DNA of 32,000 bases, from contig JAQBPN010000007.1 in NCBI GenBank assembly GCA_028287505.1, positions 116,120 to 148,119 on the forward strand, given 5' to 3'. Source of the DNA: Fibrobacterota bacterium (GTDB lineage: Bacteria; Fibrobacterota; Fibrobacteria; UBA11236). Made by a program: the position numbers and the translations under genes. This document shows, in pieces, positions 6,091 through 30,497 of the stretch (position 1 is its first letter; every line of letters starts with the position of its first letter). The notes beneath the pieces were generated by a model. The model was not told the DNA's origin. It made no database searches and worked only from the letters and a program-made list of their open reading frames with translations.

Positions 6091-8484
6091 TCAGAAGGCT
6101 TCGGGCTTGCCTGAGGCCAGGAAGCGGGAAATCCCGGACAGGTATTCCTTGGAAGTGCTGTAGCGGGTGAAACCCCACTTGCGGTTCCCGGTTTCGATCA
6201 CGGGCAGGTTCAGGGTATCGCCGGGATGGACTTCGTTCAGGGCCTTGCCGGGATTGTGCTTTTGCAGCAGCCAGAACGGGATTTCCCGCTCCAGCGCCCA
6301 GTTCCACAGGTTCATGCCTTTTTCCACCCGCAGGGGTTCGGTGACGGAGACATAGTAGTTGCTGTAGAAATCCTCTTCGATGGCGCGGTAATATTCCTCC
6401 CGCCGTTTCACGAATTCCCCGGCCTTGTCCTCCGCCAGGGGGATGCGGATTTTCCGCCCCATGCGGAAGTCCCGCGGGTTGCGGATTTTGTTCAGGTTGC
6501 GCAGCGTCTTCTCCGGCACCCAGGCCCATTCGGAATAGTGGGACAGGGTTTCCTCCGTGCCCGCCTGGATGGACAGGTTGCCGTCCGCGTAGGTGTACTC
6601 CAGATTATAGATGGCCGGATTGAAGCGATCCATGGGATGGGCCAGCTTGTCCATGTCCGAGGCCTGCAACGATAAGGTCGAATCCATCACGCGCTCTTCG
6701 GCGGGAACCGGTGAGGCGGAAATCGCGGGGGTTACCGGAGCGAGGACCGCAGGCGCGGGCGTTGGCGCAATGGCTTTCACGGCCGCGGCCTGGGGAACCG
6801 ATGCCGGCTTGGCGGGCGTCAGCGAAGCCACGGGCCCGATGGCTTGGGGAAGCGAGGGGCTGCCGCTCCCGGAAGCCTTCAGGGCCGCCGCCTTGTCCTT
6901 GGCCGAAGCCGCCGCCACCGGTTGGTTCACCGCGGGAGGAACGGATGGGGGCGCTGGGGCGGGAGCGCCGGCCGCGCTGATCGAGGCTTGGGGTTTCACG
7001 GTCACGGCGGCTTTCTTTTCCCCGATCCGGCGCTTGGGCTTTTCCGGCTTGACCGAAGCCAGAGCGTTCTCATCCGCATTGCCGACCTTGTCCTGGGTCA
7101 TGGAGAGAGGCAAGGTCGCATCGGGCAAAGAATCGGTCACGGCCGCCGCGGCCGCCGAAGTCCCCGCGCCTTCCGCCATCGCCACCGCCACCGGAGCCTC
7201 GACTGTCTTGCCGCCGGAAGCGGCCGCGATGGTCCCCGGTTTTGTCGCGCGGGAAGCGATTTCCACGCCGCCCAGCCTGGCCGCCAGCGAAGACGCATCC
7301 AGCGCCAGGGGCAACCGCAGGGAGAATCCCTTGGGCAACTGCCCGTTGCCGCGGAAGGTCGCGGGCCTCAGCGCCAGATTGTATTCCTCCAGATCCTCGG
7401 GTGACAGGCCGGTTACCGTGCACAGATAGCGCGTGCCCATGGGCTTGGACAGCACCAGGTAGCGGAACTGCAAGGGTTCCATCTTGCGCAGTTCCGGGAA
7501 CAGGGAGTCGGCCTTGAGAGCGATGCTGGACGCGGCCAGGAATTCCGCGTAGAAATTCTTGGAGGCGAAGCCGAAGGAGTTGGAGTAGTAGCTCTTGATG
7601 ATGGTGCCCAGGTCCCGGGTGCCGGCCTGTTTCACCGCATTCGCCACCCCTCCGGGCCCGTGATTGTAGGCCACGATGGCCAGCGGCCAGCTCTTGAGGG
7701 ATGCGAAGTTCCCGGACAGCATGCGGGCGGCCGCCAGCGTCGAAGCCTGGGGATCGCGCCGCTCGTCCACCTGGTACCCCACCTTCACCTTGTACCGGCG
7801 CGCCGAGGACTTCATGAATTGCCACATGCCCGCCGCGCCTACCTTGGAGTAGGCGAAAGGATAGAAGGAGGATTCCACGTGGGGCAGGAACTTCAAGCGC
7901 GAGGGAACGCCCTGCTCGGCGAAGATGGAATCGATGAGGGGAAGATAGCGGTAGGATCGTTCCAGGCCGGCGCGGTACTTTCCCTTGAGACCGCGCTGGA
8001 AGCGCAATCGCTGCGCGGAAAGCATGATGCCGGTGCTGTCCCAGAAAGACGGAAAGGTCGCCTTCAGCTCCCGTTCCTGGGTTGTCCAGGCGGCGCTGTC
8101 CTTGGAGAGCATCACGCGGATCTCTTCCTGCAAGGCGTGCACGTGGCCCTCCACCACCTTGGAAGTCGCGCGGCCCTGGCCGGGAGCCTGCACTTTGCGG
8201 AAGACCAGATCCGGGTAGAAGGGATCGTGGATCAGGCCTTCGTCGTCCCCCACCTCCACATAGATGGCGAACCAGAAGCGGGCCTGGTCCAGGATGAATT
8301 CGTCCGCCGGAAAGGTGGCATCGGTGACGATGGGATAATGCTTTCCTTCGAAATACCCGGATGCCAAGGCCCCGCATGGCGCGGAGGCGAGGATCATTCC
8401 CGTGAGCAAAAGACCCGGGAAAGGAAAGCGGGGCTTCGGAACCGGACCGGAGAACGGGCGTTTTCCTCGAAAGAAATCGGGCAT
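6091..8484 (-). CDS. Large lytic transglycosylase (MltD/SLT-like catalytic domain) with C-terminal LysM-like segments
   Basis: VPSRLKFLPHVESSFYPFAYSKVGAAGMWQFMKSSARRYKVKVGYQVDERRDPQASTLAAARML is the SLT/MltD signature (catalytic E, GMWQFM). The long Ala/Pro linker and C-terminal NKIRNPRDFRMGRKIRIPL / NPGKALNEVHPGDTLNLP segments are LysM-like. Confidence 0.82.
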   Translation of the reverse strand: MPDFFRGKRPFSGPVPKPRFPFPGLLLTGMILASAPCGALASGYFEGKHYPIVTDATFPADEFILDQARFWFAIYVEVGDDEGLIHDPFYPDLVFRKVQAPGQGRATSKVVEGHVHALQEEIRVMLSKDSAAWTTQERELKATFPSFWDSTGIMLSAQRLRFQRGLKGKYRAGLERSYRYLPLIDSIFAEQGVPSRLKFLPHVESSFYPFAYSKVGAAGMWQFMKSSARRYKVKVGYQVDERRDPQASTLAAARMLSGNFASLKSWPLAIVAYNHGPGGVANAVKQAGTRDLGTIIKSYYSNSFGFASKNFYAEFLAASSIALKADSLFPELRKMEPLQFRYLVLSKPMGTRYLCTVTGLSPEDLEEYNLALRPATFRGNGQLPKGFSLRLPLALDASSLAARLGGVEIASRATKPGTIAAASGGKTVEAPVAVAMAEGAGTSAAAAAVTDSLPDATLPLSMTQDKVGNADENALASVKPEKPKRRIGEKKAAVTVKPQASISAAGAPAPAPPSVPPAVNQPVAAASAKDKAAALKASGSGSPSLPQAIGPVASLTPAKPASVPQAAAVKAIAPTPAPAVLAPVTPAISASPVPAEERVMDSTLSLQASDMDKLAHPMDRFNPAIYNLEYTYADGNLSIQAGTEETLSHYSEWAWVPEKTLRNLNKIRNPRDFRMGRKIRIPLAEDKAGEFVKRREEYYRAIEEDFYSNYYVSVTEPLRVEKGMNLWNWALEREIPFWLLQKHNPGKALNEVHPGDTLNLPVIETGNRKWGFTRYSTSKEYLSGISRFLASGKPEAF

Positions 8485-14733: not shown

Positions 14734-15125
14734 GCGAGGATGCTCACCGCATGCGCGAAAAAACCATGCCGCCAAGACCGGTCCGCTCGCCATTTACAAA
14801 GCTGCTTTTAGCCCTCTTGAGAAAGATCCCCAAAGGCAAAGTGGCCTCCTATGGACAGATCGCGGCCCTGGCCGATCATCCGCGCGCCGCGCGCCAGGTG
14901 GTGCGCCTGTTGCATACTCTTTCCGAACGCGAGAACCTGCCCTGGCACCGGGTGGTCAACCGTAACGGGCATATTTCCCTTCCCATGGAAGGCGCAGGCG
15001 GCCTGCAACGTCGCCTATTGATCAAAGAAGGCGTAAAAGTGAACGCGCAAGGAGCGATGGATTTGGAACGGTTCGGATGGAAGCCGGAAATGAAGCCGCG
15101 CAAATCCGCGCTTCCTCGCGGGTAA
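14700..15125 (+). CDS. Alkyltransferase-like (ATL) protein of the MGMT family (likely start 14751)
   Basis: IPKGKVASYGQIAALADHPRAARQVVRLLHTLSERENLPWHRVVNRNGHISLP: MGMT DNA-binding domain with active-site Cys replaced by Trp (PWHR). Confidence 0.88.
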   Translation: MVRFPGTPQPLGEDAHRMREKTMPPRPVRSPFTKLLLALLRKIPKGKVASYGQIAALADHPRAARQVVRLLHTLSERENLPWHRVVNRNGHISLPMEGAGGLQRRLLIKEGVKVNAQGAMDLERFGWKPEMKPRKSALPRG

Positions 15126-15131
15126 AACCCA

Positions 15132-15806
15132 TTAATGGATTTTCAAAACGATGCGGCGGTTCTTGGCCTGATTGGATGAAATCGGCTTCCCGTCGCCGTC
15201 CACGTTGGGCACCTTGGGCTTGGTGTCCGCGTAGCCCGCCGCCTTGAGGCGCTCGGACGGAATGCCTTTTCCGATCAGGTACTTGACGATGTTGGTGGCG
15301 CGCGAAACCGAGAGTTCCCAGTTGGACGGGAACTGGAGGGTATTGATGGGAATGTTGTCCGTGTGGCCCTCGATGTCCACCGCGAACTTGTAATACTCGA
15401 TGCGTTGGATGGCATCGGCCACCTTGTCCATGTTCGCCCGCGCCGAGGGTCCGATATCCGCCTTGCCCGGATCGTAGATGGCCGAACTCGAGAATTCCAC
15501 GATGATGCCGTCGCGCCCCAGATCGATGTTCACTTCGCCGCGCTTCCGCTGATCCGCCAGGAGCGAATCCAGGTCGTGCTTGATTTCGCCCAGGGGCGTC
15601 TTCACGTCCTTGTCCTTGCCGATATCGCTGCGCAGGCCCTTCTTCATCTGTTCGAAGAGCACCGGATCCACATGGGAGACGGAAAGCATGGCCAGGAAAA
15701 AGGCCATCAGGAGCGTCACCATGTCGGCGTAGCTCATGAGCCAATCCTCTTCGACCCCTTCGTGTTCCGGGACGCGGTGGCGGTTGTGGTGTTTTCTGAT
15801 GCCCAT
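15132..15806 (-). CDS. motB: MotB-like stator protein
   Basis: TM with ion-binding Asp (WLMSYADMVTLLMAFFLAML) and OmpA-like peptidoglycan-binding domain (DIEGHTDNIPI...NWELSVSRATNIVKYL...NRRIVLKI). Confidence 0.92.
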   Translation of the reverse strand: MGIRKHHNRHRVPEHEGVEEDWLMSYADMVTLLMAFFLAMLSVSHVDPVLFEQMKKGLRSDIGKDKDVKTPLGEIKHDLDSLLADQRKRGEVNIDLGRDGIIVEFSSSAIYDPGKADIGPSARANMDKVADAIQRIEYYKFAVDIEGHTDNIPINTLQFPSNWELSVSRATNIVKYLIGKGIPSERLKAAGYADTKPKVPNVDGDGKPISSNQAKNRRIVLKIH

Positions 15807-15815
15807 GGAGAGCGC

Positions 15816-16625
15816 CTACTTGCCCTTCTTGGCGGCCCCGGGCTTGTCGCCGAACATCGAATACTGATCCTTGCGGTCCAGGTAGGAATTCATCTTGTCC
15901 TGGATGTACATGGCCGGCTTCTTTTCCATGATCAGGACCAGGGCCTCCAGGATCAGGTAATGGCGGAAGCGCTCGATGCTCAGGGTCTGCTTCACCTTGG
16001 TGGAGGAAGGCATGAATACGAAGCGGGCGAAGAGCAGGCCGTATAACGTGGCGGTCAGGGCCAGGGAAAGTCCCGGTCCCAGCTTGGACGGGTCTTCCAG
16101 CTTGCCCAGCATGACGATCAGTCCCAGCAGGGTGCCCACCAGGCCGAAAGCCGGAGTCATGGATCCCATGGAAGTCAGGATGGTGGATCCCTGCAGATGG
16201 CGGAAGTAATGTTCTTCGATGTTGGTGGTGCCGAACTCCCGGATGTCGTCCGGCTTGTAGCCCGTGCTGGCCAGGGTGAAGATGTACCTGGTGAATTCGT
16301 CCTTGCTGGACTTGGCGATGGAGTCGTAGCCATTCTGGCCCTCGGCCTGCACCTTCTTGGACCATTCGCCCGCGAGCCTCACATCCTGGATCAGGCTCTT
16401 GGAGGAGATATCCTGCTTGACGAATATCTTCAGGGTGGCCCTGAAGGCGTTCCACACGTATTGGAAGCGGAACCCGATGAAGGTAACCGTAACGGTACCC
16501 CCGAAGACGATGGCGAAGCTGCCCAGGCTCAGGAAAACCTGCCAGTCCTTGGTTTCATGGAGGATTCCCAGGGCTATGACCAGGAACCCGAAAACGACGC
16601 CGCATACCGTGGATAGGGAGATCAT
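15816..16625 (-). CDS. motA: MotA-like stator protein
   Basis: 269 aa, four-TM topology, TPAFGLVGTLLGLIVMLGKLEDPSKLGPGLSLALTATLYGLLFARFVFMP signature; 9 nt upstream of motB. Confidence 0.92.
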   Translation of the reverse strand: MISLSTVCGVVFGFLVIALGILHETKDWQVFLSLGSFAIVFGGTVTVTFIGFRFQYVWNAFRATLKIFVKQDISSKSLIQDVRLAGEWSKKVQAEGQNGYDSIAKSSKDEFTRYIFTLASTGYKPDDIREFGTTNIEEHYFRHLQGSTILTSMGSMTPAFGLVGTLLGLIVMLGKLEDPSKLGPGLSLALTATLYGLLFARFVFMPSSTKVKQTLSIERFRHYLILEALVLIMEKKPAMYIQDKMNSYLDRKDQYSMFGDKPGAAKKGK

Positions 16626-17914
16626 GGGGCCTTTTCCTCTTTGGCTGCCTTCGCATCCTTGGGCGCGCCGGACATCGCGTCTTTTGACGCGCCGGGGAGC
16701 GGGATCTTGGCCTTCTTCTCTTCCGGCTTGCTTTTGTCGGCGGCCTTGGCGGGAGAAGCGGGAGGGACGGGAGCAGCGGCCGGGGCGGGTGCCGGAACCG
16801 GCGTTGTGACCGGAGCCGGGGCGGGCGTCTCCGCGGCGTCCGCTTCGGGGGCCGCTTCGTTTTCGGCGGCGGGAGCGGCGGCGGGTTCAGGCTCCGGAGC
16901 CGGGGGCGCGGCGGGGCGCGCCTGGGTGGGCTTGGCCAGATGGGTCGCGCGCTGGACCGGAGCGGCGGCCTCCGGGATCGGTGCCGCGACCGGTGCGCCG
17001 GCGGAGGAGGCCGGAGCCGCGTTCAACTGTCCGTTGTATTCCTCCGGGAAGGGAACCTGGTCCGCCTCGGGCAATGCGGCCGCGGAAGGGCGCGGAGCGG
17101 GGCGGGGCATGATGGGGCGGGGATTGGGCGATCCCCGGCCGCCCGGAGTGCGGGTCTTCTCGAGCATGTTGACCACGGCGGGCATGTCGGGATTGAGGCG
17201 CAGGGCTTCCATCCATTCGCGCCGCGCCATGCCGCCCTGTCCCATCATGTAGTGGATGCTGCCCGCCAAGGCGTGGCCTTCCGCGGTGGAACGCGCATCC
17301 AGGGAGGATCGGACGGCCTGCATGGCCTCCGGGAAGCGCTTCTGGTAGAAAAGCTCCTGGGCCTTGCGGATGCCCGTCAGTACCTTGGAGGTTACGTCCT
17401 CGTAGTCTCCCTGTTCCTCTTCGGCGGGCGGCGTTTCGGGTTTGGCGCGGGCGCGCGGATCCTGCGGTTGCTGGTGTTGCGCCGGTGGCTGACGCAAGGC
17501 ATTCCGCTGCGGGTCCGGATCCGGTTGGGCCTGCCCGTCCTGATCCTCCTGGGAAGGCGGCCTGGGTTCCGGATTGGCCGCTTTCGCCCGCTGGGCGGCA
17601 TGATGCTCTTCCGGTTCGCGGGCGGCGTGCTTGGCTTCTTCCGAGGGAGGCGGATTCGGCTTTCCGGTCATTTCCAGGTACAGATCCGTGGACCCCAGAT
17701 CGATGGTCACGTTGGCATCGGTGCTTTTGTTCGCGTAATGGAAACTGATGCTGCCTTGGCCGTTTTCGCCCGGTTCGGTTTCCGGCCCGGCCTGGGACTG
17801 GGAGGGAGCGGAACTCCTGACGTCGGGATCGGGGGCGCTTCCACCGCAACCAAGCAGGAGCATTGCGGCCATGACGGCCGAAGCCGCCGCGCGCGCGGAT
17901 GCCTCGGCCGTCAT
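16622..17914 (-). CDS. TPR-containing Pro/Ala-rich lipoprotein (track ORF extends to 17971; ATG at 17914 preferred)
   Basis: MTAEASARAAASAVMAAMLLLGC|GGSAPDPD lipobox; TPR-like AQELFYQKRFPEAMQAVRSSLDARSTAEGHALAGSIHYMMGQGGMARREWMEALRLNPD; stop overlaps the motA start (ATGA). Confidence 0.78.
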   Translation of the reverse strand: MTAEASARAAASAVMAAMLLLGCGGSAPDPDVRSSAPSQSQAGPETEPGENGQGSISFHYANKSTDANVTIDLGSTDLYLEMTGKPNPPPSEEAKHAAREPEEHHAAQRAKAANPEPRPPSQEDQDGQAQPDPDPQRNALRQPPAQHQQPQDPRARAKPETPPAEEEQGDYEDVTSKVLTGIRKAQELFYQKRFPEAMQAVRSSLDARSTAEGHALAGSIHYMMGQGGMARREWMEALRLNPDMPAVVNMLEKTRTPGGRGSPNPRPIMPRPAPRPSAAALPEADQVPFPEEYNGQLNAAPASSAGAPVAAPIPEAAAPVQRATHLAKPTQARPAAPPAPEPEPAAAPAAENEAAPEADAAETPAPAPVTTPVPAPAPAAAPVPPASPAKAADKSKPEEKKAKIPLPGASKDAMSGAPKDAKAAKEEKAP

Positions 17915-17933
17915 GGCCGCCCGCGACCGCGGC

Positions 17934-19088
17934 TTAGAACGTGTAATGCAGATAGGTGAGTTCATAGGCAACGGGTTCCAGGGTCAGGAAACGATTTTCT
18001 TCATCGGCGCCGAGACCTTTCAGTTTGTTGTTGAGGGGCATGAAAAGAATGCCTCCGCCCAAGGTGAAATGGCGGCTGACGCGCGACTTGTAACCCACCG
18101 TGAGCGTGCTGAGATGCCCGCGATTGTTGAAAGGGACGAACTCCTTGTAACCCACGTATGTTCCGAGCCAGTAGCCCAGATCGGGATTGGATTTCCGGAA
18201 GAAAATCCCCAGCATCTCGATGCCGAAATTCACCATCTGGATGTTGAAGTTGACCGCCAGGCTGTCCGGCCCGCCCGTGCCGTTGGCGAAACCGTACCCG
18301 AGGGAAACGGAGAAGAGCAGGAACTTGTCCGGGGTGACCGCTTCGCTGACCGTGCCTTCGATTCCGTACATGGTGAGGGCCAGGTTGGAGAGGGTGTCCA
18401 GTTTGGGGCGGCCGAGCGAATCGGAGGCGACCGCGCTGGGGACGATGCCTTCCTGGATGGGGAAGCGGGTCACGTTGGCGGAGGCGCTCCAATCCAGGTT
18501 CCAGATGTCCGGCTTCTTCTCGTTGGGTCCGGCCACGAAGCTGTTCGACCAGACGATTTCGCCCGTGCGGTGGCGGAACACCTTCAGGTTCAGGATCACG
18601 TCGTTGTCCGCGCTTTTGGAACAGGAGCCTTCGATATAGCCGTCCACGCGGAGCTTGTCCCCCAGCTTCCAGAGATCTTCCATGGACGGCAGGGTGTTGG
18701 AGAACTTGAAGGTGCTGTCGGTGGCCACCACGCGGAAAGTCCGGAGTTCCGGGGACGTGACCACGGTCTTGCGGCCTTCCTTGCGGAACACCTCTTCGAT
18801 CTGGGCCTGGATGTAGCGCGAAATGCCGGGGCTGAATTCCTTGGGATCCACTTTGATCTGGGACAGGGCGATGCGATCGATGTTGGGAGGGATGTCGCCC
18901 ATGGTCTTGGACAGGCGCCCCATGATCTCCGCTATCTGGCGGAGGCCGGTGGAACTGGGCGCGAAGGGATCCGGCGAAGACGCGGCCGCGGAAGCGGACG
19001 GCGCGCACATGGCCAGGCATAAGGCCAGGCACATGCCCATGATCGGGGCCGGGAGGAAACCGGCCCTGTTCGCGGAGCCGGAAATCAT
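17934..19088 (-). CDS. Secreted protein with FlgO/CsgG-like N-terminal domain and C-terminal putative outer-membrane beta-barrel
   Basis: Signal peptide; PNIDRIALSQIKVDPKEFSPGISRYIQAQIEEVFRKEGRKTVVTSPELR...LWKLGDKLRVDGYIEGSCSKSADNDVILNLKVFRHRTGEIVWSNSF; then alternating amphipathic strands ending in LTYLHYTF (C-terminal aromatic). Confidence 0.65.
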   Translation of the reverse strand: MISGSANRAGFLPAPIMGMCLALCLAMCAPSASAAASSPDPFAPSSTGLRQIAEIMGRLSKTMGDIPPNIDRIALSQIKVDPKEFSPGISRYIQAQIEEVFRKEGRKTVVTSPELRTFRVVATDSTFKFSNTLPSMEDLWKLGDKLRVDGYIEGSCSKSADNDVILNLKVFRHRTGEIVWSNSFVAGPNEKKPDIWNLDWSASANVTRFPIQEGIVPSAVASDSLGRPKLDTLSNLALTMYGIEGTVSEAVTPDKFLLFSVSLGYGFANGTGGPDSLAVNFNIQMVNFGIEMLGIFFRKSNPDLGYWLGTYVGYKEFVPFNNRGHLSTLTVGYKSRVSRHFTLGGGILFMPLNNKLKGLGADEENRFLTLEPVAYELTYLHYTF

Positions 19089-20941
19089 ACCGGCCTCCCC
19101 GAATGCTTGATTTCGTCGCGGATCCTGTGGAGGAGGCGGCGTTGCGCGGCCTCGGACTCCTTGGGCGTGGCGTCCTTGGAGCCTTCCATGCCCCCGGACA
19201 CCATCATCTGCATGCGTTCCGGCAGCAGGGAAAGGACTTTGGCGCGGATGGGCGCTTCCACGTGGAGGAGGGCCAGGATGAGGGTCTCCTGATCCAGACC
19301 CTGGAGGACGGTGCCCAGGAACTTGTCGGGCAGTCCGACCACTTCCGGCAGGGTAACGTACCGGTTACGTAATTTCTCGCCCAGGCCCAGATCCATTTCG
19401 GAGATGGAGTGGATGTACTGGAACTGCATGTTGAGGGGCAGGCTGTCGATCAATTCCAGGATGCTGTCCACGCCGTCGGCGGCCACGTAGCGCATGTTGC
19501 CCACGTCCAGGGCCTTGAGGGACAGCCGGTCCGCGATTTCCTTGTACACGGTGACCGGGATATGATCGATGTTCCCCATGGCGATCAGGAGCTTGGCCCG
19601 GTTGTCGGGATCCGTTTTCTGCAGGATGCCGCCGGCGACTTCGCCCGGCAATTGCGCCAGCACCAGGCCCACTATCCCCAGGGATTCGTCGCGCAGGATG
19701 TGCATGATCTGCTGTTCGTTCATCTGCAGCAGGAACCCGAACATGTCCTTGTATTGGTCTTCGTCCATGTGGCCGTTGGCCAGGTTCTGGTACTCGCGCT
19801 TGAATTCCTTGTACACGGTGAGCATGTCTTCGGAGGTGGGCGTCTCCCCCGCGTTCATGTGCATTTCCAGCTTTTGCGCGATATCGCGCCCGAGTTCGGG
19901 GGCGATCACGCCCATCAGGCGCGCGTCCAGGCTGGCGATCATGGCGGCGGAGTCGCGCATGCCCTTGTCGGGGTCGCGCTGGATCCAGCTCTTGATGATC
20001 TGGCCGCAATGTTTGGGGCTGCCCACGAAGCAGTTCAGCAGAAAGGGGCGGAAGGCGCCGAGTTCGGAAGGCTGGCCCTTGCCCGCGTCCGCCTTGCGGG
20101 CCGCGGACTCCCTGGGAGGCTCGGGCGCGGGAACGGGGGCGGGCGGATACTTGTCGTTCCGTTCGCCGCGGGACGAACCCATGATGGCCCGCGAGACCAT
20201 CCACACGCAGGCGAGGATAAGCAGGCAGATGATGACCAGGGGAATCAGGGAGGGAAGATGGTCGGTATAGTTGCCGAAGGGATTGGCGGCGGCCTTGTCC
20301 CTGGCATCCTCTTTCTTGGAGGCCGTGTCGTTCTTGGCCGGGGCCTGGGCGGCCGGCATGGGAGGAGGATCCACCGGCTTGCGGTAGTTGGTCAGGGAAC
20401 GGTTGTCGCGCGGGAACACGCCTTCGTGGACGGAGACTCGGTCACCCCGCGGCTCGTCCAGGCGCGTGGCCATGGTCAGCAGATTGCGGATGAACTCCAC
20501 GTCCTTCTGGGAGTATCCGGTATCCACCAGGATGTCCAGGGTAACCGCCTGGATACCCCCGGGATTGCGCGCCGCATCGTCGGCGGAGGGAACCGGAGCG
20601 GAGGGCTGTACGGTTTCCGGCAGGAAAGGAAGTCCCGGCAATTGCTGGGGCATTTCGCCCGAAACGGCGGCGGGGTCGTCCCCGCCCAGTTCCATTTCCG
20701 GCGGCGGTTCCATTTCGACTTTGGCTTTGACGAGATAGGTCGATTCTTCGTAATAGCGCGCGAGCGTGCGCGAGGCGATGTTCTCGTAGTATTGGGCCAG
20801 CTTCGCGGCCTGGTCCAGGGGCGGCCTGGCGCCGGCCATGGAGGGCTGGGCGGTCGCGTGGGCCGCCATCCCCAGAACCAGGGACAGACTTGAGATTTTA
20901 CAGGCGATGGACATGGCAATGCTGATTATACAACCCGGCAT
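19085..20941 (-). CDS. FliF-FliG-like fusion: signal peptide, periplasmic RBM3-like domain, one TM helix, FliG-like cytoplasmic middle/C-terminal domains
   Basis: Residues 131-180 GIQAVTLDILVDTGYSQKDVEFIRNLLTMATRLDEPRGDRVSVHEGVFPRDN match the FliF RBM3 pattern. TM at ~229-251 (LPSLIPLVIICLLILACVWMVSRAI). Residues 523-618 KLRNRYVTLPEVVGLPDKFLGTVLQGLDQETLILALLHVEAPIRAKVLSLLPERMQMMVSGG...ESEAAQRRLLHRIRDEIKHSGRP match the FliG C-terminal domain pattern. Start may be 20914. Confidence 0.8.
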   Translation of the reverse strand: MPGCIISIAMSIACKISSLSLVLGMAAHATAQPSMAGARPPLDQAAKLAQYYENIASRTLARYYEESTYLVKAKVEMEPPPEMELGGDDPAAVSGEMPQQLPGLPFLPETVQPSAPVPSADDAARNPGGIQAVTLDILVDTGYSQKDVEFIRNLLTMATRLDEPRGDRVSVHEGVFPRDNRSLTNYRKPVDPPPMPAAQAPAKNDTASKKEDARDKAAANPFGNYTDHLPSLIPLVIICLLILACVWMVSRAIMGSSRGERNDKYPPAPVPAPEPPRESAARKADAGKGQPSELGAFRPFLLNCFVGSPKHCGQIIKSWIQRDPDKGMRDSAAMIASLDARLMGVIAPELGRDIAQKLEMHMNAGETPTSEDMLTVYKEFKREYQNLANGHMDEDQYKDMFGFLLQMNEQQIMHILRDESLGIVGLVLAQLPGEVAGGILQKTDPDNRAKLLIAMGNIDHIPVTVYKEIADRLSLKALDVGNMRYVAADGVDSILELIDSLPLNMQFQYIHSISEMDLGLGEKLRNRYVTLPEVVGLPDKFLGTVLQGLDQETLILALLHVEAPIRAKVLSLLPERMQMMVSGGMEGSKDATPKESEAAQRRLLHRIRDEIKHSGRPV

Positions 20942-21085
20942 TTGGGGAGACTACGGATTTTCAGTTTGCCCCGGAAAGGACAAAGCTTGATAAAAGCTTA
21001 AAGTTCTACGGATGATTTACCGATAACTTCCGGATGAACCGGCGGCCATGCGAAGGCACGGCCGGGCCGGGAGAAGGGATTGGAC

Positions 21086-22789
21086 ATGTCGATAGGGTTT
21101 CGCCTCGCGATATTCGGCGCCCTCGCCTTGTGCGCATGCGATGACGGCACCGTCCATGTCGTCCGTTTCCCTTCCGGAAAAATCCGCGAAATGTGGACGG
21201 AGAAAGGCCCCAATCCCAAGGCCACCGTGCGCGAGGGTCTCTTCCAATCCTTTTTCCCGGACGGAAGCCGTTCCAGCGCCGTGGAATACCGCGGCGGCGG
21301 CAAGAACGGAAGCGCCAGCATGTGGGATGCCGGGGGCCGGCTCCGATTCAAGGGCGAATACAAAGACGACTTTCTGGTGCGGGAGATCCGTTACGACACG
21401 TCGGGAAAGGTGTCCGCGGATCGCCGTTTCTCCGTCAAAACCGATCGGGTCAAAGCCATCGGCTCTTCCGGGGACTCCCTGACGGTCCCGGAAACCTGCG
21501 CCTGGTCGGAGGCCGCCGGCCGGCCGCCCCTCAAGGACGGCCTTTGCACCATGAAGTATGCGGACGGGAAGGTCATGGCCACGCGCTATTACCAATCCGG
21601 AAGGCTGAACGGCCCCGTAAAGGCCTGGTACCGGGACGGCACGCCCTGGATGGACGGTTCCTACGCGAATGCCATCCCCGCGGGCAGATGGCGCACCTGG
21701 ACCCCCGGCGGAAACCCGCTCTGGTCGGCCGCGTACGACAAAGGAGAACGGGAAGGGGCCTGGGAGGAATGGTTCCCGGACGGCGGTCCGAAATCGAAAT
21801 CAGCCTACCGGAAAGGCAAAGCGGAAGGGGGGTATCAGGAATGGTACCCCAGCGGCAAACCCCGCCTGCGCGGGCAATTCCTGGCGGGGCGCCGGGAAGG
21901 CCAGGAAGCGGCATGGTATCCCGACGGCGCCCGCCTGTATTCCGCCCGTTACGCGGGCGGCCAACTGGAAGGGGATTTCTACCAATGGCACCCGGGCGGC
22001 AAACTGCGCCTGCATTGCCGGTTCGCCAAGGGAAAGAAAGAAGGGGGCAGCCGGGTATGGTATCCCACGGGCGTATTGCAGGAGCAGGCCTATTACAAGG
22101 CGGGGCGCCTGAACGGCTCCTATCGCACCTGGTCCGCGGAGGGCGCGCCCATGGCCATGAAGGAATTCCGCGACGGAGCCGTGGCATTCGACTCCAAGGC
22201 GAAGGAGCTCCTGGATCTCCTGGGGGCGGATCAACTGCGCGTGCCCGTGGGCATGATGGGATTCTACTGGGGCATGGGCGCCAAGGAATGCCGCGCCAAC
22301 CTGGGCCTGTACCAGGCCTCGGACGTGCATGCGAACGACGAGGGGATCACCGCGAAGATGATCGCCTTCCCGGATCGCCGCCCCACCCAGGCGCAAATCC
22401 GGCTCTCGTTCAACGGCCAAGGCGAACTATGGGGCATCAAATTGGATTTGCTCCAGCAATCGTCCGGGGACTTCTTCCCTTTGTGCGAGAACCTGGAAAT
22501 CGAAATCGGCGCGGAATTGGGAACGGCGGGACTGCGCAAGGCGGAAGGCGCATCGGATTACAGCATGACGCGGAAAAGGGATTGGGGGAAGTTCACGGTG
22601 ACCACGGGAACGGCCGGGGGCATCCAACAGGACCTGCCGGTCCTGAGCGCGGAAGGATTCAGCCCCGCCGCCAAGGGGTGGTTCCGCTTTTCCCTGGCCA
22701 ACCACCTCTATCGCGAATACGTGAATCCCGCCAACGCATCCATCACGCCTCCGCGTTGGCAGGAAGAGACCTTCCTCGCCGGACGCTGA
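21086..22789 (+). CDS. MORN_2/YwqK-type repeat lipoprotein (track start 21080 is TTG; ATG at 21086 preferred)
   Basis: LAIFGALALCAC lipobox; repeated YxxGxxxGxWxxWxPxGxxxxxxxY units, e.g. YYQSGRLNGPVKAWYRDGTPWMDGSY, YDKGEREGAWEEWFPDGGPKSKSAY. Confidence 0.8.
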   Translation: MSIGFRLAIFGALALCACDDGTVHVVRFPSGKIREMWTEKGPNPKATVREGLFQSFFPDGSRSSAVEYRGGGKNGSASMWDAGGRLRFKGEYKDDFLVREIRYDTSGKVSADRRFSVKTDRVKAIGSSGDSLTVPETCAWSEAAGRPPLKDGLCTMKYADGKVMATRYYQSGRLNGPVKAWYRDGTPWMDGSYANAIPAGRWRTWTPGGNPLWSAAYDKGEREGAWEEWFPDGGPKSKSAYRKGKAEGGYQEWYPSGKPRLRGQFLAGRREGQEAAWYPDGARLYSARYAGGQLEGDFYQWHPGGKLRLHCRFAKGKKEGGSRVWYPTGVLQEQAYYKAGRLNGSYRTWSAEGAPMAMKEFRDGAVAFDSKAKELLDLLGADQLRVPVGMMGFYWGMGAKECRANLGLYQASDVHANDEGITAKMIAFPDRRPTQAQIRLSFNGQGELWGIKLDLLQQSSGDFFPLCENLEIEIGAELGTAGLRKAEGASDYSMTRKRDWGKFTVTTGTAGGIQQDLPVLSAEGFSPAAKGWFRFSLANHLYREYVNPANASITPPRWQEETFLAGR

Positions 22790-26711: not shown

Positions 26712-27812
26712 CTAGAGGTCCACGGCCTTGGCCAAGTCCTTATAGATGCGGCCCACGCGCTCCACTTGGCCTTTGGCCGGAAAGCGTTCGTAGAAACCTT
26801 CCGCTTTGAAGGCCTTTTTCAATTCGATCCAGGGTTGCAGCCGTTCGGCCCAGCGCTTGACCCGGCCCACGGAGGGTTCGCCGTCCTTTTCGGAAAGATC
26901 CGCGCAGACGCGGATGAGCGCTTTGAGGGTGACCGGCCGGGTGACCATGTATCCCGAGTTGCCCCAGATTTCGCCCCACACCTGGGCGGAAGCCTTCAGG
27001 AAGTCCCGGAGTTGCTCGTAATAGCGTTCCGCCTGATGGGTCGGGGAAAGATCTTCCTTCGGATCCCATTCGGATTTGACCCAGCGGTTGATTTCATTGA
27101 AAAGCTCGGCCTGGAGAATCCATTTCTCCTGCTTGCTTTTGCCGCCCAGGCGGTTGATACGGTATTGGAGCGGGCTATCGTCCCGTCCATACAGATGCTC
27201 CACCACGCGGGCTGCGCAACGCTTGTCGGGCGAGGCGAAGGACACCCGCTCGTACAAGTCCACCAAGTGGCTTTTGTTGATGCGGGTGGGGGTGGAGTTG
27301 ATGATGACGAACATTTCCGTGGCGAAATCCTCGCTGCGGCCGTCGAAAATGATGCAAGGCACGTTGATGGATGCGGCCTCGTCCGGACGCTCCCGGAAGA
27401 AGAAATGCAGGGCGGCCAGGCGGTGCTGTCCGTCGATAATCAGGTATTTCCCGTCCGGATCCGACAGATGGCCCACGCCTTCATTGTCCCCGATGCCCCG
27501 GAACCGCAGCTTCTCCGCGGTGAACAGCAATACCGTGCCCGGAATGGGGGGCTGGGTGCTGGCGGTCTCGTAGAAATTGCGGATGGAGCGGATTTTGTCC
27601 CGCGCCATGGTGCGCTGGAAGGCCTTGTCCGATTTCTCGATACGGCCGATGAATTTGGCGATTTCGTCCTCGGCCGGAGCGGGTTCCGCGGCGATGGGCG
27701 TACCCTCGTCGTAGAAACGGCTGCTGAAACGCACCTTCTCCAAGAGCGCTTTCGCCGGATAGGCGGCGAAGTAGAAGATTGCGTCTTTTTGTCGGACCTG
27801 AGTAGCCAGCAT
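26712..27812 (-). CDS. DGQHR domain protein (DndB-like family)
   Basis: KYLIIDGQHRLAALHFFFRERPDEAASINVPCIIFDGRSEDFATEMFVIINSTPTRINKSHLVDLY: DGQHR motif plus FxxINxxxxxIxKSxxxDL. Confidence 0.85.
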   Translation of the reverse strand: MLATQVRQKDAIFYFAAYPAKALLEKVRFSSRFYDEGTPIAAEPAPAEDEIAKFIGRIEKSDKAFQRTMARDKIRSIRNFYETASTQPPIPGTVLLFTAEKLRFRGIGDNEGVGHLSDPDGKYLIIDGQHRLAALHFFFRERPDEAASINVPCIIFDGRSEDFATEMFVIINSTPTRINKSHLVDLYERVSFASPDKRCAARVVEHLYGRDDSPLQYRINRLGGKSKQEKWILQAELFNEINRWVKSEWDPKEDLSPTHQAERYYEQLRDFLKASAQVWGEIWGNSGYMVTRPVTLKALIRVCADLSEKDGEPSVGRVKRWAERLQPWIELKKAFKAEGFYERFPAKGQVERVGRIYKDLAKAVDL

Positions 27813-28446: not shown

Positions 28447-29690
<1,244 letters not shown>

Positions 29691-29694
<4 letters not shown>

Positions 29695-30497
29695 ACCGCA
29701 TCGACGCCGCCTTCGCGCGCCTCAAGGAAAGCCGGAAGAAAGCCTTCGTCCCTTATATCGTCGCGGGCGTGCCCGGCAGCGATGAAACCGTGGAAATCGT
29801 GCTGGAGCTGGAACGGCTGGGCGCGGACGTGATCGAGCTCGGTTATCCTTTTTCCGATCCCATGGCCGACGGCGTGGTGAACCAGGCCGCCGCCAACCGG
29901 GCGCTGGAACTGGGCGTGGACGCGGACGCGTATTTCGCCATGGTGGCCAAGATCCGCGAACGCTCGCAAATCCCTATCCTCGTCTTCTCCTATCTGAATC
30001 CCATCTTCAAGCTGGGGTTCGACGCCTTCGCGCGCCGCGCCAAGGCCGCTGGCATGGACGGCATGCTGCTGGTGGACATGCCGGTGGAGGAGTCCCTCGA
30101 TCTGCAGGCCATCTGCAAGCGCGAGGACTTGTCTCTGATTTTCCTGGCTGCGCCGACCACGACGCCGGAGCGCCTGGAAAAAGTGCTGCAAGGCGGCACC
30201 GGATTCCTGTATTACATCTCCCGCACCGGCATCACCGGGGAACAGGCCTCCTTCCAGCAGGACTTCGCCGCCAAGGTGGCCGCCATCAAGAAGGCCAGCA
30301 AGTTGCCGGTGGTGGTCGGCTTCGGCATCTCCACGCCCGACCACGTGCGCACGGTCTGCGGGCTGGTGGACGGCGTGGTGGTGGGCAGCGCCCTGGTGCG
30401 CCGCACCTTGGAGAAGAAACCCTTCGCGGACATGCTCGCGGACATCAAGGCCCTCGTGGCGCCTTTGGCCGCTCCCACTAAGGAAACATGGAACTGA
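29691..30497 (+). CDS. trpA: Tryptophan synthase alpha subunit
   Basis: In the 28848..30497 ORF frame from ATG 29691: [29 protein letters not shown]...[13 protein letters not shown]...LLVDMPVEE...[12 protein letters not shown]...VVVGFGIS. 4-nt overlap with trpB. Confidence 0.96.

Follow-up and report, generated by a model that had tools for sequence, protein, structure and literature searches.

FliG and the stator proteins MotA and MotB (MotAB) are textbook flagellum-specific parts. In the flagellar rotor, ring-building motifs 1 and 2 (RBM1 and RBM2) of FliF house the export gate, the beta-collar holds the rod, and the C-terminal helix of FliF is the segment that binds the N-terminal domain of FliG (FliG_N). 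The EHPQR motif of FliG is the site for FliM binding, and in E. coli residues Arg281 and Asp288/289 of FliG are partnered by Glu98 and Arg90 of MotA, respectively. Research on flagellar origins has long asked what use a rotor-stator pair could have in the absence of the export machine and filament. Here, we describe a gene in 32,000 nucleotides of DNA from a Fibrobacterota bacterium (GenBank assembly GCA_028287505.1, contig JAQBPN010000007.1, positions 116,120 to 148,119 of the forward strand; the whole stretch is called the window, and positions below are those of the window). The gene is a natural joining of the C-terminal two thirds of FliF (RBM3, the second transmembrane [TM] helix, and the FliG-binding tail) to a complete FliG; a flagellar-type MotA/MotB pair always lies downstream of it.

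Covalent FliF-FliG fusions were previously known only as laboratory constructs. Engineered fusions in Salmonella and Vibrio are reported to form MS-rings still (PDB 8z4d; PMC11481574; bioRxiv 10.1101/2023.02.06.527414). No description of a natural FliF-FliG fusion or of a nonflagellar FliG-MotAB cassette was found in the literature, of which subscription papers were incompletely covered. The cassette is likewise not described in surveys of MotAB relatives (PMC12505986), periplasmic force transducers (PMC12204202), or flagellar gene loss (PMC12199754), the last of which raises the puzzle of rotor proteins in nonmotile species.

Architecture and distribution of the fusion protein

The fusion gene (19085 to 20941, minus strand) encodes 618 amino acids (aa). 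The order of its parts is very well supported: a signal peptide, the FliF-derived half (an RBM3-like domain, a TM helix, and a helix like the FliF C-tail), and FliG with its N-terminal, middle (FliG_M), and C-terminal (FliG_C) domains. An earlier note on this DNA, made from the sequence without database searches, had claimed a single polypeptide at these positions. The 618-codon open reading frame (ORF) contains no interruption, and its architecture recurs in 40 loci. All of the peptides quoted in that note are present in the ORF, one with shifted limits: YYEESTYLVKAKVEME at residues 63 to 78, VTLDILVD...FPRDN at 133 to 180 (not 131 to 180), the TM helix at 232 to 253, ILRDESLG... at 415 to 440, LGTVLQGLDQ... 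at 542 to 581, and SEAAQRR... at 596 to 615. A 494-aa ORF antisense to the fusion gene (19409 to 20893, plus strand) is spurious and typical of high-GC DNA.

An identical protein entry has been deposited from a 148-kb contig of a Fibrobacteres metagenome-assembled genome (MAG). A homologue search with the fusion protein returned 98 proteins, almost all of 590 to 630 aa, from Fibrobacterota MAGs and, at 25 to 34% identity, from Balneolaceae and others. Among the 40 loci, found by a scan of species-representative genomes, some are on complete chromosomes and others in two cultured strains, namely, Gracilimonas tropica DSM 19535 and Balneola sp. EhC07. When the periplasmic domain by itself was used in an exhaustive profile search, at least 283 clusters (50% identity, E <= 0.001) were found, nearly all of proteins of 580 to 690 aa with the domain at the N terminus. 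Databases label the fusion protein only as "FliG-like" or "FliG C-terminal domain-containing."

The N-terminal hydrophobic segment (residues 1 to 31; 20849 to 20941, minus strand) ends AHA/TAQ and was modeled by AlphaFold2 (AF2) as a helix at residues 12 to 28; the NCBI start call is Met10 (20914). Because the hydrophobic stretch is short (10 to 14 residues) and is followed by AxA-type sites throughout the family alignment (44 sequences, also used for the family profile), this segment is probably a cleaved signal peptide in place of TM1, RBM1, and RBM2 of FliF. The absence of these three elements, proposed earlier, was borne out by the alignment and the AF2 model; only about 10 residues separate the signal-peptide-like segment from the RBM3 helix. 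The NCBIfam FliF model gave no match to the fusion at E <= 10. With no RBM1 or RBM2, a fusion ring would therefore have no housing for an export gate.

The periplasmic region that follows is predicted to adopt the ring-building-motif fold, with an insertion at the position of the FliF beta-collar. An RBM3a-like helix and strand (residues 40 to 78, YYENIASRTLARYYEESTYLVKAKVEME; 20708 to 20824, minus strand), matched by Foldseek to FliF RBM3, is followed by a loop (residues 79 to 129; 20555 to 20707, minus strand) and by an RBM3b-like strand-helix-strand (residues 130 to 178, ending RGDRVSVHEGVFPR; 20408 to 20554, minus strand), matched by Pfam YscJ_FliF_C and hhalign. The topology in the AF2 model was helix 42 to 61, strand 69 to 77, a 52-residue loop, strand 130 to 139, helix 145 to 159, and strand 168 to 173, with a predicted local distance difference test score (pLDDT) of >90 for the structured parts in both full-length and domain-only models. 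Mean pLDDT for the full-length model was 76.5, with most of residues 292 to 614 at >85. The insertion lies at the same topological position as the beta-collar, but it is only about 52 residues long, is of low confidence (pLDDT <50), and lacks a predicted collar-like beta-hairpin. It carries the invariant LPGLP motif (101 to 105), of which L101, G103, and P105 are invariant in the family alignment.

At the sequence level, the FliF likeness of this domain is visible only through the Pfam model and hhalign. The YscJ_FliF_C match to the window protein (residues 125 to 173) was borderline, at 19.0 bits against a cutoff of 23.8 (E = 0.002). It recurred in 18 of the 44 family members (best E = 6.8e-6), in which no other Pfam family recurred on the N-terminal half, and passed the Pfam threshold, with 33 bits, in a distant relative (P0175). 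The family profile compared with E. coli FliF by hhalign gave a single match, residues 143 to 182 to FliF 396 to 435 (probability, 81.9%; E = 1.1e-5), which is the last helix and strand of RBM3 (the RGDxxxV end), ending RGDSLNVVNSPF; a smaller, domain-only alignment gave E = 0.004. When the domain-only AF2 model was compared with the PDB by Foldseek, the 16 best matches were all FliF RBM3/S-ring chains from Salmonella and Vibrio (E = 2e-4 to 1.3e-3; probability, 1.00; TM-score, about 0.55). Below them ranked a block of OsmC/Ohr proteins and then the injectisome proteins PrgK and EscJ (E = 0.07 to 0.1); the OsmC/Ohr matches were regarded as a coincidence of fold. A profile of the domain found nothing significant among PDB sequences. 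Pfam, hhalign, and Foldseek thus agree with the FliF assignment proposed earlier for the second half of RBM3, within the corrected limits. The earlier proposal that YYEESTYLVKAKVEME resembles the FliF segment before the collar insertion fared differently in its two aspects. The fold was matched by Foldseek, but pairwise alignment of residues 40 to 80 with E. coli FliF gave no signal (z <= 2.3, at scattered positions). Since there is no detectable sequence similarity to FliF, it is the predicted fold that speaks for the first half of RBM3.

A single TM helix follows, as the earlier note had stated (residues 226 to 256, LIPLVIICLLILACVWMVSRAI; 20174 to 20266, minus strand; AF2 helix 229 to 254), with basic residues on its C-terminal (cytoplasmic) side. 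By eye, the pre-TM segment NPFGNYTDHLPSL (residues about 219 to 239; 20225 to 20285, minus strand) bears a loose likeness to the segment before TM2 of E. coli FliF, LPFWQQQAFIDQLL. Beyond the TM helix, residues 291 to 326 (19964 to 20071, minus strand) form helices like the FliF C-tail that contain PKHCGQIIKSWIQRD, with an invariant W319. In local alignments, PKHCGQIIKSWIQRD aligned to the extreme C terminus of E. coli FliF (residues 535 to 552, DPRVVALVIRQWINNDHE) in about 35 of the 44 members, with z up to 8 relative to shuffled sequences. The similarity covers about 15 residues and was seen only in local alignments with shuffling controls; hhalign gave no match to the FliF C-tail. This helix is similar to the FliG_N-binding helix of FliF and may bind FliG_N likewise.

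The remainder of the protein (19088 to 19963, minus strand) comprises FliG_N (327 to 400), FliG_M (401 to 485), and FliG_C (486 to 618), including the torque helix LLPERMQMMVSGGMEG. Pfam FliG_C (512 to 610, 52.9 bits) and FliG_M (410 to 482, 49.1 bits) scored above threshold. FliG_N (327 to 397) scored 23.4 bits against a cutoff of 25 in the window protein and was matched in 34 of the 44 family members (best E = 2.9e-10). A phmmer search of PDB sequences returned FliG chains only (best, 3hjl; E = 6e-12; residues 409 to 611), and hhalign with the 44-sequence profile aligned E. coli FliG 27 to 319 with residues 348 to 615 (98.4%; E = 5.5e-15). Foldseek matched the full-length AF2 model to full-length FliG from Salmonella C-rings and Aquifex over about 315 columns (E = 3e-9), and the model superposed on the FliG_C domain of Thermotoga maritima FliG at 1.5 Å. 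The earlier note had recognized a FliG-like middle region and FliG_C and had called for profile checks against FliF and FliG; these agreed with it on both halves and revealed FliG_N in addition. The NCBIfam FliG equivalog model, TIGR00207, was not passed (74.8 bits against a cutoff of 226.7), so the FliG half is a divergent FliG and not an ordinary one.

Individual FliG residues were compared across 42 cassette proteins. The equivalent of Arg281 in the torque helix was invariant (42/42), and the equivalents of K264 and R297 were not conserved. The position of Asp289 was Glu in all Balneolaceae-type proteins and Gly or Ser in the Fibrobacterota clade that includes the window, where a conserved acidic residue lies two positions later (in the window, within LLPERMQMMVSGGMEG). 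Within the EHPQR motif, E125 was kept in 41 of the 42 proteins, H126 was Ser in 37, P127 was variable, Q128 was Glu or Gly, and R160 was Lys or Ala. The FliM-binding motif is thus lost in the fusion family.

The five-gene operon and its variants

The fusion is the first gene of a tightly packed five-gene operon (15132 to 20941, minus strand), very well supported, in which it is followed by a 384-aa secreted protein (P384), a tetratricopeptide repeat (TPR) lipoprotein, MotA, and MotB. The stator and accessory genes beside the fusion had not been reported in the earlier note, and they change the significance of the finding. Genes within the operon overlap at ATGA, and the P384 ATG overlaps the stop codon of the fusion in this way. 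In three divergent homologues, the genomic context was the fusion, a protein of about 350 to 375 aa with no Pfam match, a TPR protein of about 220 to 245 aa, MotA_ExbB, and MotB_plug plus OmpA. When all loci were searched by tblastn, this order was intact at all loci that no contig end had truncated, in Fibrobacterota as well as Balneolaceae, although the fusion proteins of the two groups are only 28 to 30% identical.

MotA (269 aa; 15816 to 16625, minus strand) is a four-TM, flagellar-type stator A subunit (Pfam MotA_ExbB, 79 bits). Its residues 4 to 254 aligned to solved MotA/PomA structures in the PDB (E = 5e-26), and NCBIfam models for MotP/PomA/MotA scored 122 to 138 bits, below their equivalog cutoffs, versus about 22 bits for TolQ/ExbB. 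MotB (224 aa; 15132 to 15806, minus strand) has a TM segment with the channel Asp, a plug (MotB_plug, 60.8 bits), and an OmpA-like peptidoglycan-binding domain (OmpA, 60.5 bits); the equivalent of the channel residue Asp32 was invariant (37/37). At the MotA position equivalent to R90, Arg or Lys is present in Balneolaceae and Gln, Ser, or Thr in Fibrobacterota; the E98 position is Asp or Glu in all Fibrobacterota and variable in Balneolaceae, with the loop alignment not certain at either position. The R90 charge pattern mirrors that of FliG 289, and matching of this kind between partners would be expected of a working rotor-stator interface. A terminator-like hairpin about 20 nucleotides past the motB stop codon (15098 to 15111, minus strand) is a possible end of the operon; it came from a consensus scan in which the number of sites was not above shuffled expectation. 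A 477-aa ORF (15022 to 16455, minus strand) that overlaps the real motA and motB in another frame is spurious, as is typical of high-GC DNA.

P384 (17934 to 19088, minus strand) lies downstream of the fusion in all loci. It has a signal peptide, a conserved N-terminal domain, and a C-terminal half rich in Gly and aromatic residues that ends in an alternating hydrophobic strand with an invariant terminal Phe (YELTYLHYTF; GYGVKAYVQF). This C terminus looks like an outer-membrane beta-barrel signal, which makes P384 outer-membrane protein (OMP)-like. Profile searches of Pfam, NCBIfam, and the PDB gave nothing significant for it, and a CsgG/LpoB/FlgO likeness of its N-terminal domain was no more than an impression and is not put forward here. 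The TPR lipoprotein (ORF of 449 aa; 16622 to 17971, minus strand; Pfam TPR_2) likely starts at the ATG at 17914. In the family alignment, it has an invariant lipobox Cys, a small conserved N-domain, and about two TPRs; a PDB profile search gave generic TPR matches only. The protein is 417 to 449 aa long in the window's clade versus 206 to 276 aa elsewhere, and a low-complexity C-terminal extension of about 200 residues rich in Pro, Ala, Glu, and Lys (16622 to 17250, minus strand) is confined to that clade. This Pro/Ala-rich tail is reminiscent of periplasm-spanning proline-rich linkers.

The ratio of nonsynonymous to synonymous substitution rates (dN/dS, or omega) was computed against four orthologous loci with unsaturated dS. 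Values were 0.14 to 0.21 for the fusion, 0.12 to 0.22 for P384, 0.08 to 0.14 for MotA, and 0.05 to 0.14 for MotB. Within the fusion, omega was 0.04 to 0.06 for RBM3a, 0.06 to 0.09 for RBM3b, and 0.04 to 0.08 for the TM helix; these parts together with the tail and FliG spanned 0.04 to 0.15. It was relaxed in the loop and linkers (0.17 to 0.6; loop residues 79 to 129, 0.17 to 0.43). All four genes tested are under purifying selection, strongest on RBM3, TM, and FliG.

Divergent architectures were also found. A subfamily of proteins of 720 to 807 aa (P0181, at L047 6666 to 8891; P0201; and P0235) has the order LysM-RBM3-TM-FliG. In locus L047, MotA and MotB lie directly downstream of the LysM-type fusion, and the gene upstream encodes a large protein with the same TPR module at its end. 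A homologue search with P0181 returned mainly LysM proteins. A rearranged cassette (L048 6876 to 14137) encodes a P384-like protein, a TPR lipoprotein (P0175), a second TPR protein, a 594-aa RBM3-TM-FliG fusion, a longer MotA (323 aa), and MotB. In P0175, three RBM3-like repeats are fused to the TPR module, which suggests that the TPR lipoprotein sits in a ring stack beside the rotor. The recurring core is the RBM3-FliG fusion, a TPR protein, and MotAB.

Other genes in the window surround the operon. A MORN_2-repeat protein (569 aa; 21080 to 22789, plus strand) with a signal-peptide-like N terminus is transcribed divergently and is separated from the cassette by 138 bp of intergenic DNA; this neighborhood is not conserved in other loci. 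A dedicated transglycosylase is often needed by flagellar and secretion machines; a protein with an SLT lytic transglycosylase domain (797 aa; 6091 to 8484, minus strand) is encoded about 7 kb from the cassette, a linkage not conserved in other loci. An ORF with a DndB match (DNA-sulfur modification associated, 44.8 bits) and a weak GmrSD_N match (26712 to 27812, minus strand) is possibly a DNA modification or defense gene unrelated to the cassette. In a 549-aa ORF (28848 to 30497, plus strand), the tryptophan synthase alpha match is confined to residues 289 to 522; this ORF is probably overextended upstream or overlaps an unrecognized trpB-like gene.

A proposed torque-generating machine and its alternatives

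Apart from the cassette homologues, no flagellar genes (including those for the export apparatus, rod, hook, filament, and FliM/FliN) were found in the 32-kb window, and precomputed Pfam annotation showed none in the flanks of 8 to 10 kb on either side of loci L001, L003, L004, L047, and L048. An intact cassette is present in G. tropica DSM 19535 (L029), which is described as nonmotile and has only 17 genes in the motility category COG-N (PMC4642740). The fusion protein is not FliF (it lacks TM1, RBM1, and RBM2) and not canonical FliG (it is below the equivalog cutoff and lacks EHPQR), and the cassette, at the loci examined, is not a flagellum. With moderate confidence, we propose that the five genes encode a self-contained, ion-driven machine, rotary or at least torque-generating, that is derived from the flagellar motor and independent of the flagellum, with no type III export apparatus, rod, hook, or filament.

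In such a machine, many copies of the fusion, the presumed rotor subunit, would use RBM3 to build a ring like the S-ring at the periplasmic side of the inner membrane and would thereby place a covalent, 1:1 FliG ring beneath the membrane on the cytoplasmic side. MotA5B2 units would be anchored to peptidoglycan by the OmpA-like domain of MotB. Ions passing via the invariant Asp of MotB would cause these units to push on the FliG_C torque helix, at the invariant Arg281 equivalent, so that the ring turns. Through its conserved LPGLP loop, the periplasmic ring would engage the TPR lipoprotein and the OMP-like P384 and so deliver mechanical work at the outer membrane. Action on this two-protein module is the most economical assumption, because the LPGLP loop and the two secreted partners are the sole conserved periplasmic surfaces. 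Candidate outputs are surface movement, secretion, and envelope remodeling. Chemotactic control of the motor is improbable, given the absence of a FliM/FliN switch.

Several points weigh against this reading. Formation of a ring by RBM3 without RBM1 and RBM2 is assumed by analogy, as is rotation. The torque-helix charges Asp288/Asp289 are missing in the Fibrobacterota clade, including the window, and the covariation of MotA with FliG amounts to effectively one evolutionary event, a single clade split. The cassette encodes no recognizable output component: P384 has no known relatives, and the case for its being an outer-membrane barrel consists of the C-terminal motif and two weak matches. A glycan-binding LysM domain on a presumed rotor is hard to square with free rotation beside a peptidoglycan-anchored stator; in the LysM variants, the ring may be static or may act on glycan strands. 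The window organism may also have a true flagellum, because flagella are inferred to have been present ancestrally in Fibrobacteres, with loss confined to Fibrobacteraceae (PMC4704652), and because the Balneolaceae include flagellated species (PMC5167729).

The last point leads to an explanation that we consider quite unlikely, namely, that the cassette is an accessory or alternative rotor-stator set (a second motor type or a specialized basal-body ring) within a conventional flagellum encoded elsewhere. Every recognizable part is a flagellar homologue, and flagella in Fibrobacteres are inferred to be both ancestral and common, with flagellated species among the Balneolaceae as well. However, the fusion has neither TM1 nor the RBM1/RBM2 domains that enclose the export gate, keeps only a 52-residue loop where FliF has its beta-collar, and has lost the FliM-binding EHPQR motif. 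In addition, at each inspected locus the 10 kb on either side contained no flagellar gene, and nonmotile G. tropica carries the cassette with too few motility genes for a flagellum. Unlikely, but deserving more serious attention, is the idea that the fusion forms a static inner-membrane ring that recruits and gates MotAB as a regulated ion channel or as a force generator on peptidoglycan or the outer membrane, by a logic nearer to Tol-Pal or Ton than to a rotor. The LysM-bearing relatives suggest a ring tied to glycan or peptidoglycan, two of the classical torque-helix charges are absent in the Fibrobacterota clade, and a TPR lipoprotein and an outer-membrane protein accompany the motor much as CpoB, Pal, and TolB accompany TolQR (PMC12204202). 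Yet MotA is of the flagellar four-TM type with a large cytoplasmic torque-generating domain and not of the ExbB/TolQ type, known MotA turns against FliG, the complete FliG, including the Arg of the torque helix, is strongly constrained, and no TolA/TonB-like transducer is encoded in the cassette.

That the cassette is a transcribed but functionless relic of a lost flagellum seems very improbable. Relics of flagellar genes are known, and about 11% of nonmotile species keep some rotor protein without a filament (PMC12199754). Against this stand dN/dS values of 0.05 to 0.22 in all four genes tested, with domain-specific constraint; 40 loci from two phyla whose ORFs are intact and whose catalytic and interface residues are invariant; and at least 283 sequence clusters with the same architecture. 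A relic is further disfavored by the conserved gene order, which includes two nonflagellar genes, because decay would not preserve it. The chance that sequencing, assembly, or a frameshift joined two genes is negligible. In canonical operons, such as that of E. coli, fliF and fliG are adjacent and overlapping, and a single indel could fuse them; however, the two N-terminal FliF domains are cleanly absent and not merely frameshifted. Because the same fused architecture of about 600 aa recurs in independent isolates, MAGs, long-read chromosomes, and metagenomes, an assembly or frameshift artifact is excluded.

If the preferred reading of a self-contained torque-generating machine is correct, the cassette would be a FliG/MotAB torque generator redeployed outside the flagellum. 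The chance that the cassette belongs to a new class of envelope machine is substantial. More tentatively, it is possible that it is the first to be recognized in a widespread class of rotary machines (at least 283 clusters, several architectures), spanning the envelope and independent of the flagellum, in which a minimal FliF(RBM3)-FliG ring is spun by MotAB to power work at the outer membrane that has nothing to do with swimming. The flagellar torque-generating core would then be an autonomous module, selectable without a type III export apparatus, and the cassette would be a living model of "half a motor," either derived from the flagellum or ancestral to it. The cassette offers a concrete case, conserved and under strong selection, whose list of parts is defined; because it occurs in cultured strains (G. 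tropica DSM 19535 and Balneola sp. EhC07), the question of a rotor and stator without a flagellum becomes experimentally testable. A rotating ring would add a new class of output for ion-driven 5:2 motors and provide a minimal one-protein rotor for structural and single-molecule work, and a static ring would be a new use of FliG as a MotAB-docking platform.

Comparison with known systems

The closest described system is the flagellar FliF-FliG rotor with MotAB or PomAB. Shared with it are an RBM3 fold with an insertion between the first two strands, followed by a TM helix and a FliG-binding-like helix; a complete FliG with all three domains and the invariant Arg281; a four-TM MotA; and a plug-bearing, peptidoglycan-binding MotB with its invariant Asp. 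The cassette differs in that a single polypeptide replaces two, TM1, RBM1, and RBM2 are missing, a short loop stands in for the beta-collar, and the EHPQR motif is lost. It also lacks nearby genes for FliM/FliN, export, rod, hook, or filament, includes an OMP-like protein and a TPR lipoprotein, and occurs in a nonmotile species. Engineered FliF-FliG fusions share the covalent joint between the FliF C terminus and the FliG N terminus, which enforces 1:1 stoichiometry. They are laboratory constructs with full-length FliF in a complete flagellum, whereas the cassette fusion is natural, N-terminally truncated, and outside flagellar loci.

The injectisome ring lipoproteins (SctJ/YscJ/PrgK) resemble the fusion in having a Sec-exported N terminus, a periplasmic RBM, a single C-terminal TM helix, and the Pfam YscJ_FliF_C family. 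In contrast with the fusion, which has a single RBM with an insertion and no lipobox, SctJ is a lipoprotein with two uninterrupted RBMs, no FliG, and no stator. The structural match of the fusion to PrgK/EscJ was much weaker than that to FliF RBM3 (E = 0.07 to 0.1 versus 2e-4), and no type III secretion genes were found near the fusion loci.

The T-ring and H-ring accessories of Vibrio (the Sel1/TPR-like MotX, MotY, and FlgO/FlgP/FlgT) are TPR-type periplasmic and outer-membrane-associated proteins that act on, or are encoded alongside, a MotAB/PomAB stator. Their likeness to the accessory proteins of the cassette is one of analogy only, profile searches having given generic TPR matches and nothing for P384; a MotX-like role for the TPR lipoprotein is likewise no more than an analogy.

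With TolQR-TolA-Pal-CpoB, ExbBD-TonB, GldLM/PorLM, and AglRQS, the cassette shares an inner-membrane motor of the MotA/ExbB family encoded together with periplasmic and outer-membrane partners; CpoB, like the cassette lipoprotein, is a TPR protein (PMC12204202). Like these other 5:2 motors, the cassette probably uses ion-motive force to drive work at the outer membrane. Unlike them, it would do so with a motor of the flagellar MotAB subtype whose partner is a FliG ring and not a transducer of the TolA, TonB, or GldM type.

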